From the sequence record MH359124: a DNA stretch of 64,000 nucleotides. The stretch is one strand, 5' to 3'. A program made the translations under genes and the position numbers. Below are positions 18,537 through 30,947 of the stretch, piece by piece (the first letter of the stretch is position 1; every line of letters begins with the position of its first letter). Source of the DNA: Escherichia phage SF. The notes under the pieces were generated by a model. It was not told the origin of the DNA. It made no database searches and worked only from the letters and a program-made list of their open reading frames with translations.

Positions 18537-19133
18537 ATGCGAAACCAAAATAATGATATTGACTCGATGTTCGAAGAGTTCCGAAATAAGGTAAATCCAC
18601 CTACGTCTTTAGTTGATTCATTACGATATGTTGCAACTGGACGTAAATGGTACTGGTCGTCTTCTTATGAGACAACTGAATATGCAAATAACCGAAAATC
18701 TTTATTAGCCCCAGGTATTATGATTCATGATATCGGAGCTATTGCTAAACTAGTTGCAGACCATGATATTAGATTCACCGATTTCGTTGCTCCTACGTGG
18801 TCTGTTTGTTGTTTAAACACTGAATGGGAATATATCAGCGAACGCTCTGAAGATTATTATGGTTTTAGAGACAAGCTTTTAAGGTCTAACATGTTTTATA
18901 TTGATACAGAAGTTCTGGTCAATAATAAAAAATACTATTTCACTTTAATAGTCGATTCTGAAACTATGTATGAAGGCAAGCCTTTGCTTAAAAGAGTTGA
19001 TGCTTTAAGTGCTATTGATGCGCTTTATGAAACCATGGTTGTTAGTCCTAATTTCACTAACAATTTAATCCTTGAGCAATTTATTATGGAATGTAGAGAA
19101 TATGTCAAAGCCAACCCTATACATGCCAAGTAA
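18537..19133 (+). CDS. hypothetical protein with C-terminal FIMECR motif
   Basis: ATG after AAGGAG; MRNQNNDIDSMFEEF. Confidence 0.55.
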   Translation: MRNQNNDIDSMFEEFRNKVNPPTSLVDSLRYVATGRKWYWSSSYETTEYANNRKSLLAPGIMIHDIGAIAKLVADHDIRFTDFVAPTWSVCCLNTEWEYISERSEDYYGFRDKLLRSNMFYIDTEVLVNNKKYYFTLIVDSETMYEGKPLLKRVDALSAIDALYETMVVSPNFTNNLILEQFIMECREYVKANPIHAK

Positions 19134-19497
19134 GCCCTGGGCGTATGAATACAAGCGTAAATTAATCCCAAATGAAGTACTATTTGGCCCTATTTTAGCT
19201 TTAGCATTTTTAATCTTTATGATTATAGGAGCTGTTTTAGATTCTAGTGAAGTTATATCGTCTGATGCAGTGTTTTTACTTATTATAGTCGGGTCGTTTA
19301 TTGTACCATTTTTATTAATGCCTATTAACTGGGTAGGATATTGGCACCAAGGCCGTCATCACAGAGCCCGATTAAGAGAATGGAAAGTTCAGTGCGCAAA
19401 AGCCCAAGCTCAGTATGATGAAGCTGTTAAAAAGTACGAATATGAAGAAGCTATGGAATTCGTTAAGGAAATAAGATGCAAAAGCCTCAACTCTTAA
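19102..19497 (+). CDS. small membrane protein (2 TM helices)
   Basis: Start uncertain (ATG 19102 or 19123); LFGPILALAFLIFMIIGAVL and FLLIIVGSFIVPFLL. Confidence 0.5.
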   Translation: MSKPTLYMPSKPWAYEYKRKLIPNEVLFGPILALAFLIFMIIGAVLDSSEVISSDAVFLLIIVGSFIVPFLLMPINWVGYWHQGRHHRARLREWKVQCAKAQAQYDEAVKKYEYEEAMEFVKEIRCKSLNS

Positions 19498-19835
19498 CCG
19501 TATGGCCTTCTCTTGGTGAGAACATTCTAATTTTTATTATGAGTATTGGCGTGGGATTTGCCTTTGGATTAGTTGGATTTCTTATTGACGGCGTTGTGTT
19601 AGGATTTATAGGGAACACTGGTGGATTCACAGACCAATGGCAGGACTTACGGTATACCCAAGCCTTTGCATCCATCGCATCATTTTGTACTGTAGTCTAT
19701 TTTTACTATGATTTTATAAACCATAACAAGAAAAATAAAAAGGTTTACGCTTCTCAAATGATTAGTTATAATGAACTCCTAGCTAGACGTGAAAATGAAA
19801 CAATAGAAAACTTTATTAAGGAATGTAGAAAATGA
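19476..19835 (+). CDS. membrane protein with C-terminal ENFIKECRK tail
   Basis: 119 aa; hydrophobic segments; conserved C-terminal motif shared with 21982 and 22975 genes. Confidence 0.55.
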   Translation: MQKPQLLTVWPSLGENILIFIMSIGVGFAFGLVGFLIDGVVLGFIGNTGGFTDQWQDLRYTQAFASIASFCTVVYFYYDFINHNKKNKKVYASQMISYNELLARRENETIENFIKECRK

Positions 19836-20137
19836 GTAAGATTATTGAAATTAAAGTACCAGAGTTTAATGATGCCAAATCCGCTTCAGATGCAATTTAT
19901 AAACTTCTGAATCAAGCTGAACGTATCGAAGAAGAAGCAACAAAGATCGCAGACCAATATGCCGTATCATTTTCTGTAGGTGATTATGGTAGCGGTCGTA
20001 CTTATTATCCTAAGGGTGAAATCGTATCCCAGTGGATGAAAAATGAAATTGAAAATAATGGTGGCGATGTTAAGCGTGAAGGTAATGGTTACGTTATTAC
20101 TGAAGGTGCTTGGGTTTCGTCTTCTGCGTTGTGCTAA
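19832..20137 (+). CDS. small protein, tandem paralog A (C-terminus GAWVSSSALC)
   Basis: 101 aa; ATGA overlap with upstream stop. Confidence 0.55.
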   Translation: MSKIIEIKVPEFNDAKSASDAIYKLLNQAERIEEEATKIADQYAVSFSVGDYGSGRTYYPKGEIVSQWMKNEIENNGGDVKREGNGYVITEGAWVSSSALC

Positions 20138-20146
20138 GGAACCACT

Positions 20147-20419
20147 ATGTCTAAAGAACAAACCGAACTGGCTGAAGCCGTAGCAAAAATCTATGCAGCT
20201 ATTGAGGCTGCCAAAGAAATTGCTGATAAACAAAACACAACATTCGACTTGTATCCAGCTTATGGTATGGGTGGAACATATCATTCACCCGGACAGCTTA
20301 AAGCCGATCTTGAACGTTGTACAAAAAACGGCTATGCTGAATGGGCTGACGTTTACCAATACGACTACAACCTGAGCCTCGAAACTGGTGGTTGGATCGC
20401 ATCTTCTCACACTTGCTAA
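20147..20419 (+). CDS. small protein, tandem paralog B (C-terminus GGWIASSHTC)
   Basis: 90 aa; junction TGCTAAGGAACCACTATGTCT conserved with next paralog. Confidence 0.55.
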   Translation: MSKEQTELAEAVAKIYAAIEAAKEIADKQNTTFDLYPAYGMGGTYHSPGQLKADLERCTKNGYAEWADVYQYDYNLSLETGGWIASSHTC

Positions 20420-20428
20420 GGAAACCAT

Positions 20429-20626
20429 ATGTCTCGTGAATTAGATTGTGCTGTACGTACTGCAGTAGCTGCCCTGGAAAACCTGTTCCAAATTGCAACA
20501 GAAGAACGCGAAGAAGTTACATTATGGATTGAAGATAACGCAGGTCTGAATCTCCAGGACGCGATCTCATTATCCCACAATAGTATCACTGTTCAAGGCT
20601 GGGTATCGTCTAGTTATTCTTGCTAA
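20429..20626 (+). CDS. small protein, tandem paralog C (C-terminus QGWVSSSYSC)
   Basis: 65 aa. Confidence 0.55.
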   Translation: MSRELDCAVRTAVAALENLFQIATEEREEVTLWIEDNAGLNLQDAISLSHNSITVQGWVSSSYSC

Positions 20627-20628
20627 AA

Positions 20629-20672
20629 CAGTTTACAACAAGATAGGGCTATGTTATAGTAGTCCTATCAAA
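20629..20672 (+). promoter_or_regulatory. PeSL-like promoter (GTTTAC; TATAGT inside GATAGGGCTA / TAGTCCTATC)
   Basis: caGTTTACaacaaGATAGGGCTAtgtTATAGTAGTCCTATCaaa. Confidence 0.6.
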
Positions 20673-20688
20673 TTAAATGGAGTCCACA

Positions 20689-20928
20689 ATGATTTATTAC
20701 GAAAGTATTGGAACCGAAGTGGTTGCTAAAACCATTACTCGTGAAAAGTTTGCAAAGATATTCGATATGCGTTATAAAAAATCTGAACACAAAGGCATTC
20801 GATTCGAAGATGCGCACTGTACAATTTGCCCTTATAATGAAGACATAAATGGTACAATCGTTCCATTGGTAGAGGCTTCACATGATGACCTCTGGGATGA
20901 ATATAATATCGCATGTCGCGAAATTTAA
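20689..20928 (+). CDS. hypothetical protein
   Basis: ATG after GGAG; MIYYESIGTEVVAK. Confidence 0.5.
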   Translation: MIYYESIGTEVVAKTITREKFAKIFDMRYKKSEHKGIRFEDAHCTICPYNEDINGTIVPLVEASHDDLWDEYNIACREI

Positions 20929-20953: not shown

Positions 20954-21910
20954 ATGATGTTAGTTATTGGTTCTCGTGCACTTCACTATCATGGACTTAT
21001 TGATTCTAATGCTATCAAAAATAGTGACTGGGACTTTATTGCAGACCAAGGTTCTTGGAATGCATTCAAAAATCAAATGATGGGTGTATATGTTCATCAA
21101 GATAACCCTGATGTCCAAGTTTTCAAATGCTTCCATAATGGACGCGAAACTCATTTTGAAGCATATATTGTTCCGGCAATCACTAATGTCCGTGAATTAG
21201 TCGGTGAACTCACTCCTGAAGATTTCACATCTTCTTACGACCTTTTAAAATACGCCAAGAAAAATTTGACCAAAGACCGTTTGAACGGGTTTTACTGGGC
21301 AACTCCTGAGATATGTCTTGCAATTAAGATGTCTCATCGTTTCAAGAAAAATAATCCATTCTTTTTAAAGACTATGAACCATATTCAGTATCTTCGTGGT
21401 AAAGGTGTTACACTGAACGACGAACTTACTGAAATTATGCTGAAACGCCAGAAAGAAACCTTGAACTATGCTCACCCAGTTCTTGACACTTCTAAAAGTG
21501 CGTTCTTTAAAGATGACATCTATACATATGACCATGATACTATTCATGAAGCCATTGCACTAACAGACCGCCCGGCTTATACATTTTACATGAAAGATGG
21601 TTCTGAAGTCATGACCTCACGCGAGAAGTTTGAATCATTACCAGAAATGGTAAAATTGGCTGGTGTATACGAAGAATCATGTGTACTAGCATTAGAACGT
21701 TCTCAGATTCCTAACGACTTTAAAATTAACCCTGAAGCCAGTTTTATGATGGCATTGGAAAAAGTCTGTACAAGCATCACCTCTGGTTGGTTCCGTGAGT
21801 ATGCCTGGGAAAACTATAGCAAAGTAGTAAGTATGTACCAAAGCTTAGGACATGATGATTACGTCAAACGTTTCAAACAAAATTTCCATATGGTAAAACC
21901 TTTCAAATAA
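20954..21910 (+). CDS. hypothetical protein, possible nucleotidyltransferase-fold N-terminus
   Basis: 318 aa; N-terminal LVIGSRALHYHG...SDWDF loosely resembles GS...DxD NTase motif. Confidence 0.55.
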   Translation: MMLVIGSRALHYHGLIDSNAIKNSDWDFIADQGSWNAFKNQMMGVYVHQDNPDVQVFKCFHNGRETHFEAYIVPAITNVRELVGELTPEDFTSSYDLLKYAKKNLTKDRLNGFYWATPEICLAIKMSHRFKKNNPFFLKTMNHIQYLRGKGVTLNDELTEIMLKRQKETLNYAHPVLDTSKSAFFKDDIYTYDHDTIHEAIALTDRPAYTFYMKDGSEVMTSREKFESLPEMVKLAGVYEESCVLALERSQIPNDFKINPEASFMMALEKVCTSITSGWFREYAWENYSKVVSMYQSLGHDDYVKRFKQNFHMVKPFK

Positions 21911-29911: not shown

Positions 29912-30371
29912 AAACTATATCAAGGGCGATATTGTCGCCCTGTTTTCTAAAGGTAATAATATCGCTCACGGGTGTAATTGTTTTCATACAATGGGCGCTG
30001 GTGTGGCAGGACAATTAGCAAAGGCTTATCCAAAAATTCTGGAAGCCGATAAACTTCAAACCGAATTCGGAGACGAGTCTAAACTCGGGACTTATTCGGT
30101 TTATGAAAAATATTTTAAGACACATAAAGCTTATTGCTTTAATCTTTATACACAGTTTGAGCCTGGACCTAATTTTGAGTACTCTGCTTTAATGAATTGT
30201 ATAATAGAATTAAATGAATTCGGAAAGAATAAGATAACAAAACCTGTAATTTATATGCCAAGAATTGGTGCAGGTATCGGTGGTGGAAACTGGGATGTCA
30301 TCGAAGAGATTTTAGATACGTATTCCACTAAACTAGAAATTGTGATTGTTGATTGGGAACCATTATTATGA
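29874..30371 (+). CDS. macrodomain protein, TARG1/DarG-like putative ADP-ribosyl hydrolase
   Basis: IAHGCNCFHTMGAGVAGQ and PRIGAGIGGGNW resemble TARG1 motifs (AHCISEDCRMGAGIA, PRIGCGLDRL); start uncertain (TTG 29874 or GTG 29904). Confidence 0.6.
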   Translation: MTLILEDLQQVIKNYIKGDIVALFSKGNNIAHGCNCFHTMGAGVAGQLAKAYPKILEADKLQTEFGDESKLGTYSVYEKYFKTHKAYCFNLYTQFEPGPNFEYSALMNCIIELNEFGKNKITKPVIYMPRIGAGIGGGNWDVIEEILDTYSTKLEIVIVDWEPLL

Positions 30372-30580: not shown

Positions 30581-30762
30581 GTTTAAGTAAAGAACAAAAA
30601 GACCGACTGTTTTCTCTTATTCATGAAGTTATGGATAAAAACAATGAATTGGAAAAAGTTTGTGATGAATGCGGTCCTTTTAATACCGATGAATATGAAG
30701 AACTGTGTAAAGATTTCGACGATAAAGAACAAGAACTTATTGATTATATAAATTCCTTATGA
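30577..30762 (+). CDS. hypothetical acidic protein
   Basis: MSLSKEQKDRLFSLIHEV; paralog-like to next ORF. Confidence 0.5.
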   Translation: MSLSKEQKDRLFSLIHEVMDKNNELEKVCDECGPFNTDEYEELCKDFDDKEQELIDYINSL

Positions 30763-30947
30763 TTACTCGCGAACAAAAGAATGAAATACGATTTTTAATC
30801 AGCGAAATTATTAGTTTAGAACGAGATTTATCTTTTGAATTGGCTTCGGATTATGGAGATGCTGAAACATACTACGAATTAGTAAAATCTATCGATAAAG
30901 CTGAAAATGATTTAGAAACATATTTAGAAAATTTAACTAAGGACTAA
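30759..30947 (+). CDS. hypothetical acidic protein
   Basis: MITREQKNEIRFLISEII; similar pattern to previous ORF. Confidence 0.5.
   Translation: MITREQKNEIRFLISEIISLERDLSFELASDYGDAETYYELVKSIDKAENDLETYLENLTKD

Follow-up and report, generated by a model that had tools for sequence, protein, structure and literature searches.

What might three consecutive small genes, all ending in the same short cysteine-terminated sequence, be doing in a T4-type bacteriophage, and why should each of their products stop at a cysteine? The question is raised by a 64,000-nucleotide stretch of DNA from Escherichia phage SF (sequence record MH359124; here called the window), a T4-type coliphage of the genus Mosigvirus that shares about 98% identity with phage HX01 and is a relative of phage RB69. 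In the hypervariable interval between T4 genes e.3 and e.2 lie three consecutive plus-strand open reading frames (ORFs), ORF1, ORF2, and ORF3 (Table 1), each with a Cys codon as the last codon before a TAA stop and each ending in W-x-[S/A]-S-S-x-x-Cys. An earlier description made from the letters of the DNA (the sequence-only reading) had reported three such genes, and their positions, lengths, MSK or MSR starts, and final Cys were confirmed as exact ORFs. What that reading missed is the most informative fact about the family, namely, that the tailed genes are nearly obligately linked to a downstream, same-strand gene for a protein with DUF7277 and DUF7275 domains (the enzyme). We put at about an even chance the proposal that the small proteins are direct functional partners of this enzyme, either as its substrates or as obligate cofactors.

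To begin with the array itself, 32 of the 961 window ORFs (stop to stop, at least 30 amino acids) ended in Cys, and the W..SS..C-stop motif was found in a real reading frame only in ORF1 to ORF3; because of these two observations, the array cannot be ascribed to chance. Other matches to the motif, at 20550-20726 and 30018-30188, were out-of-frame or antisense fragments and were rejected. The ratio of nonsynonymous to synonymous substitution rates (dN/dS), calculated with orthologs of graded divergence, was 0.04 to 0.36 for ORF1 and 0.13 to 0.44 for ORF2, and comparison of ORF3 with locus L007 gave a dN of 0.007, a dS of 0.41, and a dN/dS of 0.016. Since these values are far below 1, the three ORFs evolve as protein-coding genes, and we conclude that they are real genes under purifying selection.

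The family to which these genes belong proved to be large and confined to phages. Word-indexed searches returned 60 relatives in T4-like phages of Escherichia, Klebsiella, Enterobacter, Serratia, Yersinia, and Aeromonas, and an exhaustive profile search of 1.84 billion cluster representatives (clusters at 50% identity) returned 525 representatives at E <= 1e-3, 63 of them at E <= 1e-10, so that the family comprises at least 525 clusters. Members found by the profile search were almost all 70 to 120 amino acids long, with a match that reached the last residue. Cys was the last residue in 129 (93%) of the 138 new representatives listed, and the exceptions carried one extra residue. Among 263 full-length members, W occupied position -7 in 99%, S occupied position -4 in 100%, and S occupied position -3 in 99%; position -5 was S, A, or P, and G was common at -8 and -9. 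Mean column identity outside the tail was 15%. The family is acidic (median isoelectric point [pI], 4.5; ORF1, 4.7), and its commonest subtype is the AYGMGGTY form represented by ORF2, the GDYGSGRTYYP form of ORF1 being a subgroup. The terminal Cys was the sole Cys in 58% of members, and because these proteins contain no other Cys, an intramolecular disulfide is excluded as the general role of the tail. The suggestion of the sequence-only reading that the shared ends might be a C-terminal recognition or modification signal fits this extreme constraint on the motif and the required Cys end, and the tail may well be such a signal. Searches of Pfam, NCBIfam, and PADLOC with the small proteins gave only subthreshold noise, a search of PDB sequences with ORF1 gave no match, and the literature held no mention of RB69ORF136c, RB69ORF137c, RB69ORF139c, phrog_899, DUF7275, DUF7277, or the core motifs; the Cys-tailed family is thus without a Pfam model, a solved structure, or a literature.

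The AlphaFold2 (AF2) model of ORF1, made with a 30-sequence alignment, was confident (predicted local distance difference test [pLDDT], 91; predicted template modeling score [pTM], 0.75). In the predicted fold, a long helix (residues 15 to 43) is combined with a small beta-sheet, and the tail consists of the last strand (residues 93 to 96, which holds W94) followed by a short terminal helix (residues 97 to 100).

The linkage to the enzyme gene was measured from both sides. In the window, the enzyme gene starts about 330 nucleotides downstream of the array. When the small proteins were used as the anchor, 40 of 42 loci had the enzyme gene downstream on the same strand (E <= 1e-78), and the contigs of the remaining two break off after no more than a few hundred bases, which gives 40 of 40 evaluable loci. 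When the enzyme was used as the anchor, in a set of 30 viral loci at 40 to 98% identity, family hidden Markov model (HMM) matches were present upstream, on the same strand and within about 2 kb, in 26 loci; three of the remaining four held divergent tailed ORFs of the W..SS..C-stop type, with the ends ...SSWVQSSC in one, ...NWSSSSAHC, ...DWASSRC, and ...WMHSDHSC in another, and ...GWDSSSC in the third. The enzyme-anchored total was therefore 29 of 30, with a single true exception (L019). The same arrangement was found in Acinetobacter T4-like phages, in phAPEC8-type phages, and in 6 of 7 contigs from metagenome-assembled genomes (MAGs). Three very distant members of the family, from Myxococcus phage Mx1, from a jumbo-phage contig of 395 kb, and from a metagenomic phage of 122 kb, are each followed directly by an enzyme gene whose product (307 to 349 amino acids, DUF7277 plus DUF7275) has the architecture of the window protein. 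The surrounding genes were wholly different between linked phages. The number of tailed ORFs per locus ranged from one to six, and by motif scan several genera carried four or five with unrelated bodies. The enzyme was present in 732 phage records; in cellular genomes (one per species, 185,579 species), there were seven matches, all of them on MAG contigs.

Two observations on individual loci stand beside these counts. The largest array seen, on a metagenomic phage contig (L047:413-3418), has six tailed ORFs, of which five precede the enzyme gene and the sixth follows it. At the exceptional locus, a cluster of seven tRNA genes (Ile, Lys, Glu, Asn, Asp, Met, and Gln) stands in place of the array, immediately ahead of the enzyme gene (L019:2615-3567), and in Gordonia phage ClubL the enzyme gene is closely followed by a tRNA cluster; the clusters may be coincidental, such regions being hypervariable, or they may point to a role connected with RNA.

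What kind of protein the partner is was approached through its conserved residues. Among 14 divergent homologues, the N-terminal domain was invariant at G6-S7 and at D25-x-D27, and the C-terminal domain was invariant at K125, H128, R129, K139, T140, R165, Y172, H174, P175, H194, D195, H198, P207-A-Y, E240, E241, LALER (residues 245 to 249, including E248 and R249), and K270-V-C272-T-S-x-T-S-G-W. The GS...DxD signature was present in 56 of 57 distinct N-terminal domains, with a spacing of 10 to 20 residues. GS...DxD (hG[GS]...[DE]h[DE]h) is the classical motif of nucleotidyltransferases of the Pol-beta type. The N-terminal domain looks like such a nucleotidyltransferase, and some depositors have labeled the gene accordingly. 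The His/Asp/Glu cluster of DUF7275, together with its basic residues, suggests a metal-dependent phosphoesterase-like site; NCBIfam gave a HisJ/PHP match to the enzyme that was weak (E = 0.002, far below the cutoff). No match to the nucleotidyltransferases of toxin-antitoxin or defense systems (AbiEii-MenT and MNT-HEPN) was found with PADLOC and Pfam, and a lone PADLOC match of the enzyme to NsnC (E = 0.017) was dismissed after it was not reproduced in the 14 homologues. The enzyme of an Acinetobacter phage (L082:2992-3945) carries the depositor label "DefenseFinder protein"; it was negative in PADLOC, as were the 14 homologues.

The nearly invariant Cys272 of the enzyme was compared with the presence of tailed partners in 68 distinct enzymes. 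Cys272 and tailed partners occurred together in 60 of the 68, and 60 of the 62 enzymes with Cys272 had partners. Strict covariation of Cys272 with the terminal Cys was nevertheless suggestive only, being broken by five enzymes that have one without the other (L052, L053, L060, L019, and L084); because of these exceptions, a Cys-Cys mechanism is not obligatory. A further three of the 68 are short homologues of about 250 amino acids, with Val or Ile at position 272 and without a tailed partner. These enzymes, from Streptomyces phage Wakanda, Gordonia phage ClubL, and Vibrio phage KVP40, each adjoin a different protein of about 97 amino acids that is unrelated to the Cys-tailed family (L079:3594-3893, L080:3600-3890, and L081:2360-2656). 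Similarity among these neighbors is weak (E = 0.002 for the Streptomyces phage protein against that of the Vibrio phage), and they may represent an alternative partner family. Both subclasses of the enzyme thus pair with a small protein, and the existence of an enzyme-plus-small-protein unit is therefore supported.

We then considered how the three ORFs are related and how old the array is. Pairwise BLASTP similarities were weak but significant, with E values of 2e-4 for ORF1 and ORF2, 5e-4 for ORF2 and ORF3, and 7e-3 for ORF1 and ORF3. ORF1 and ORF2 aligned over 57 residues, which include a YGxGxTY core, and in both an N-terminal helix (..A..IAD..) is followed by a YGxGxTY(Y/H)P loop (DYGSGRTYYP in ORF1 and AYGMGGTYHS in ORF2). 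The core was not found in ORF3, which keeps only the helix and the tail and whose similarity to the other two lies mostly in the last 25 to 40 residues or so. Similarity beyond the last 9 residues, on which the notion of a family had been made to depend, was therefore clear for ORF1 and ORF2 and was limited for ORF3 mostly to that terminal segment. ORF1 and ORF2 fell in phrog_899 (E = 1.8e-22 and 1.9e-18, respectively) and ORF3 fell in phrog_4882 (E = 7.7e-37), both groups being of unassigned function, and the family HMM recovered all three (E = 3.5e-34, 1.4e-19, and 2.7e-5 for ORF1, ORF2, and ORF3). The view that these genes are small paralogs of one family was upheld by this profile and by the significant alignments.

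Its description of the family as locally amplified did not survive. ORF1 shares 63% identity with its counterpart, the first copy, in another genus (L008) but only about 27% with ORF2, and ORF2 is about 52% identical to the second copy at L008; overall, paralogs are 25 to 30% identical, versus 50 to 63% for position-matched orthologs in other genera. In a neighbor-joining tree, the first, second, and third copies each grouped together across genera, and the ORF3 of the window formed a long lone branch. The position-matched identities and the grouping in the tree indicate that the array is old and conserved by position, and not the result of recent amplification; ORF1 to ORF3 are ancient paralogs of one family that have been kept by position across genera. 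Loss of single copies was also seen. In the RB69 reference genome, the ortholog of ORF1, RB69ORF139c (P0002), is frameshifted to 71 amino acids and has lost its tail, and in phage mar005P1 the ortholog of ORF2 (P0046) is cut to 75 amino acids. Individual tailed copies appear to be dispensable or redundant.

Table 1. Coordinates of the array, its partner gene, and associated features in the window
Feature	Position	Strand	Description
ORF1	19832-20137	+	101 aa, MSK...GAWVSSSALC; GDYGSGRTYYP subtype; equivalent of RB69ORF139c
ORF2	20147-20419	+	90 aa, MSK...GGWIASSHTC; AYGMGGTY subtype; equivalent of RB69ORF137c
ORF3	20429-20626	+	65 aa, MSR...QGWVSSSYSC; minimal member, helix plus tail; equivalent of RB69ORF136c
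Enzyme gene	20954-21910	+	318 aa; DUF7277 (E = 4.8e-79), N-terminal; DUF7275 (E = 1.1e-27), C-terminal
Junction 1	20135..20149	+	TAA stop within TAAGGA ribosome-binding site, 6 nt before ORF2 ATG; translational coupling
Junction 2	20417..20431	+	Same TAAGGA stop/ribosome-binding-site layout ahead of ORF3
Promoter-like site	19744..19772	+	Within e.3; TTTACG-17-TATAAT, 10/12 consensus matches
RNA hairpin	20642..20669	+	Directly after ORF3; 11 bp, -16 kcal/mol, z = -3.3; no U-tract
Intervening small ORF	20677-20928	+	83 aa (79 aa from annotated start); phrog_3723; CxxC-like HCTICP motif

The near-identity of the two junctions within the array, which had been taken as a sign of amplification, was confirmed. 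The sequences TGCTAAGGAACCACTATGTCT (ORF1/ORF2) and TGCTAAGGAAACCATATGTCT (ORF2/ORF3) belong to a repeat family (D1) with 71% identity over 48 nucleotides, and both follow the pattern TGC-TAA-GGA-A(A)CC-A..-ATG-TCT. The likeness is explained by constraint and not by recent duplication, because the tail codons, the TAAGGA Shine-Dalgarno sequence that contains the TAA stop, and the ATG-TCT (Met-Ser) start are each constrained. At the upstream end of the array, the ATG of ORF1 overlaps the stop codon of e.3 (ATGA). The promoter-like site within e.3 is a candidate middle or early promoter for the array: its equivalent is labeled a T4-type middle promoter in the annotation of phage SA35RD, and promoter-like sites as a whole were not enriched in the window over shuffled sequence. 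The hairpin after ORF3, which is a terminator in the SA35RD annotation and was not called by a consensus scan of the window, is a possible terminator or RNA-stability element. Beyond it, in Mosigviruses, comes the intervening small ORF and then the enzyme gene; the cassettes of distant phages as a rule have no gene in between.

Two other leads in the window were followed and given up. The homologue of e.4 (19072-19497 in the window; L002:2703-3098) is called a sulfurtransferase in some GenBank records and a membrane protein in others. A connection of the array with sulfur transfer was rejected on finding that the label belongs to this upstream gene, whose product has predicted transmembrane-like segments and no Pfam support, and the label looks like an annotation artifact. 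A 62-amino-acid plus-strand ORF at 30759-30947, directly upstream of thymidine kinase, encodes a helix and then SDYGDAETYY. Its core-like match is weak (E = 0.0015 in the window ORF set) and it has no tail, so that it was not accepted as a fourth copy; it may be distantly related to the family, or the match may be due to chance.

Three explanations other than direct partnership were weighed against these results. A young duplication, or a set of nonfunctional ORFs whose shared ends merely reflect a recent common origin, would account for the DNA-level likeness of the junctions and for the occasional frameshifted copies in other phages, but we regard it as highly improbable: it is effectively refuted by the diversity of the clusters across very diverse phages, by dN/dS values of 0.02 to 0.45 taken with the comparison of paralogs and position-matched orthologs, and by the tree, and the confident AF2 fold also speaks against it. 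The small proteins might also be regulators or inhibitors of the enzyme, acting as antitoxins or through a "cysteine switch" in which the terminal thiolate and carboxylate chelate a metal center in DUF7275 and so hold a potentially toxic enzyme off until the proper time or trigger. All of the linkage evidence can be claimed for this explanation too. As is the case for many toxin-antitoxin pairs, the enzyme gene is preceded by the small gene, often with translational coupling between the two; the invariant His/Asp/Glu cluster could bind a metal, and a Cys as the very last residue would suit bidentate thiol-carboxylate chelation. We nonetheless consider such regulation unlikely. One enzyme with up to six very different inhibitors is hard to explain; no toxin-antitoxin or defense model was matched in PADLOC or Pfam; such pairs are usually plentiful in cellular genomes, from which the module is absent; and tailed copies have been frameshifted, as in RB69 and mar005P1, while the enzyme gene was kept.

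It seems doubtful that the small proteins are independent effectors (for example, acidic mimics or inhibitors of host proteins or of nucleic-acid-binding defenses) that make no contact with the enzyme, are co-located with it by pathway or regulation, and have a tail that is structural, metal binding, or engaged in intermolecular disulfides. The strong acidity of the family does resemble that of many phage inhibitor proteins, the bodies diverge fast, as in an arms race, the cassette lies in an early/middle accessory region rich in small uncharacterized genes, and the AF2 model places the tail within the folded domain. Independence from the enzyme does not account, however, for synteny that is kept in phages sharing no other neighborhood genes, and the needs of folding alone explain poorly why the tail should be the sole universal part, even in the minimal ORF3. 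Moreover, the enzyme subtypes that lack tailed partners carry a different small neighbor, and the members with only a terminal Cys leave no place for an intramolecular disulfide.

Direct partnership with the enzyme is thus the explanation that we develop here. The module would consist of one to six small acidic proteins ending in G-x-W-x-[S/A/P]-S-S-x-x-Cys-COOH, followed by one same-strand DUF7277/DUF7275 enzyme; the bodies diverge freely, and the structured tail would be a docking or modification element recognized by the enzyme. If the N-terminal domain is a transferase of the Pol-beta type, the conservative guess at the chemistry is that a tail hydroxyl (of the invariant Ser-Ser) or the terminal thiol is reversibly nucleotidylylated, a modification that the phosphoesterase-like C-terminal domain might reverse or process, with the terminal carboxylate and Cys anchoring the tail in register. 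In this scheme, the modified tail would be carried to different targets by the variable acidic bodies, in early/middle host takeover or in counterdefense. We hold any specific chemistry with much less confidence than the partnership itself. The fuller proposal, a phage-specific tail modification system in which a nucleotidyltransferase-like enzyme covalently modifies or activates the W-x-S-S-S-x-x-Cys-COOH end of small acidic effectors, whether by nucleotidylylation of Ser-Ser or Cys or by a chemistry that needs a free terminal cysteine, is offered tentatively, as one possibility.

Several observations weigh against this proposal, or against parts of it. In the AF2 model the tail of ORF1 is folded onto the domain and forms no free arm, and its W and SS residues could serve folding. 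Gene linkage alone cannot separate a substrate from a regulator, and in the window a hairpin and an extra ORF lie between the array and the enzyme gene. Only 1 of 20 N-terminal domains touches a known nucleotidyltransferase Pfam family, and weakly (DUF6036; E = 0.058), and PDB phmmer and profile searches with the enzyme gave no match, so that the assignment to the nucleotidyltransferases depends on a short motif; the single-sequence AF2 model of the enzyme (pLDDT, 36) was unusable. The correlation of Cys272 with the terminal Cys is suggestive and is confounded by phylogeny, with 2 of the 68 enzymes having Cys272 and no tailed partner (L019 and L084) and 3 having a tailed partner and no Cys272 (L052, L053, and L060). 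The data establish the family, the constraint on its tail, the purifying selection, the linkage, and the restriction to phages; physical interaction, the enzyme class, the chemistry, and the role of the module are all read from sequence, synteny, and one predicted structure.

If direct partnership is true, hundreds of large virulent phages carry an unrecognized enzyme-plus-small-protein system whose signature is a free C-terminal cysteine. Among the carriers are T4-like coliphages, jumbo phages, Mx1, and phages of Acinetobacter, Aeromonas, and Pseudomonas used in therapy. The module would provide a first functional handle on DUF7275, DUF7277, and two PHROGs, and it could reveal a new protein modification or a new means for phages to control or equip their small effectors. 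Should the small proteins prove to be regulators, a conserved docking motif with a terminal cysteine would still be a novelty. A simple, testable annotation rule follows (look for a small acidic ORF that ends in W..SS..C-stop and precedes a DUF7275 gene), and RB69 or another Mosigvirus on Escherichia coli offers a tractable system.

How, finally, does the module compare with systems in which an enzyme acts on a small protein? The nearest in outline are the ubiquitin-like and sulfur carriers (ThiS-ThiF, MoaD-MoeB, and ubiquitin-E1), which share with it small proteins (65 to 100 amino acids here) with a conserved chain end and an adjacent enzyme; the phage enzyme has a nearly invariant Cys (C272), and there are several small paralogs per enzyme. 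The phage tail, however, ends in x-x-Cys and not in Gly-Gly, the small protein is predicted to form a long helix and a small sheet with no beta-grasp, and the partner matches only DUF7277 and DUF7275, with the Pol-beta-like GS...DxD in place of a ThiF/E1 signature. Enzymes of the Pol-beta type are known to act on hydroxyls and not on carboxylates. The GlnD-PII and GlnE-glutamine synthetase pairs resemble the module in a different way, in that the phage enzyme combines a putative nucleotidyltransferase domain with a second domain bearing a metal-ligand-like His/Asp/Glu cluster, and the putative small-protein target has conserved Tyr/Ser/Thr loops (YGxGxTY and SS). There is no detectable homology to the GlnD, HD, or PII families, though, the module is restricted to phages, and members of the ORF3 type lack the Tyr loop, so that only the tail is universal. 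In CitX-CitD and MdcG-MdcC, an enzyme of the nucleotidyltransferase superfamily attaches a prosthetic group to a Ser of an acidic carrier of about 100 amino acids. The likeness is that a transferase of the nucleotidyltransferase type is encoded together with a small acidic protein that has an essential Ser; the differences are that no sequence or profile similarity was found, that the phage site would be at the extreme C terminus and include an invariant Cys, that there are several phage carriers per enzyme, and that no citrate lyase or malonate decarboxylase genes were nearby in the contexts examined.

Two further comparisons concern the tail. Cassettes for ribosomally synthesized and posttranslationally modified peptides (RiPPs) likewise place tandem short genes with a common segment beside one enzyme, and a Ser at -3 with a C-terminal Cys gives the S-x-x-C spacing of aminovinyl-cysteine (AviCys) peptides. 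The phage proteins differ in being predicted to be folded and intracellular, with no leader or export signals evident, and in having their conserved part at the C terminus and not in a leader; genes of the LanB, LanM, or LanD type and genes for radical S-adenosylmethionine (radical-SAM) proteins or flavoproteins were not present in the cassettes examined. DsrC and TusE are proteins of about 100 amino acids with a conserved Cys at the extreme C terminus and a partner enzyme, but their Cys is penultimate and on a flexible arm, they showed no fold or sequence similarity to the phage proteins, and the phage partner is unrelated to DsrAB or MnmA. Because a beta-grasp fold, a Gly-Gly end, an E1, HD, LanD, or radical-SAM component, a match to toxin-antitoxin or defense models, and presence in cells were all absent, the module is not a member of any of these systems. 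Together, these comparisons point to an undescribed kind of enzyme-plus-small-protein module that lies outside the known systems. If its enzyme does modify the tails, its logic would parallel that of the ubiquitin-like or RiPP systems, built from unrelated folds and with a new terminal signal.

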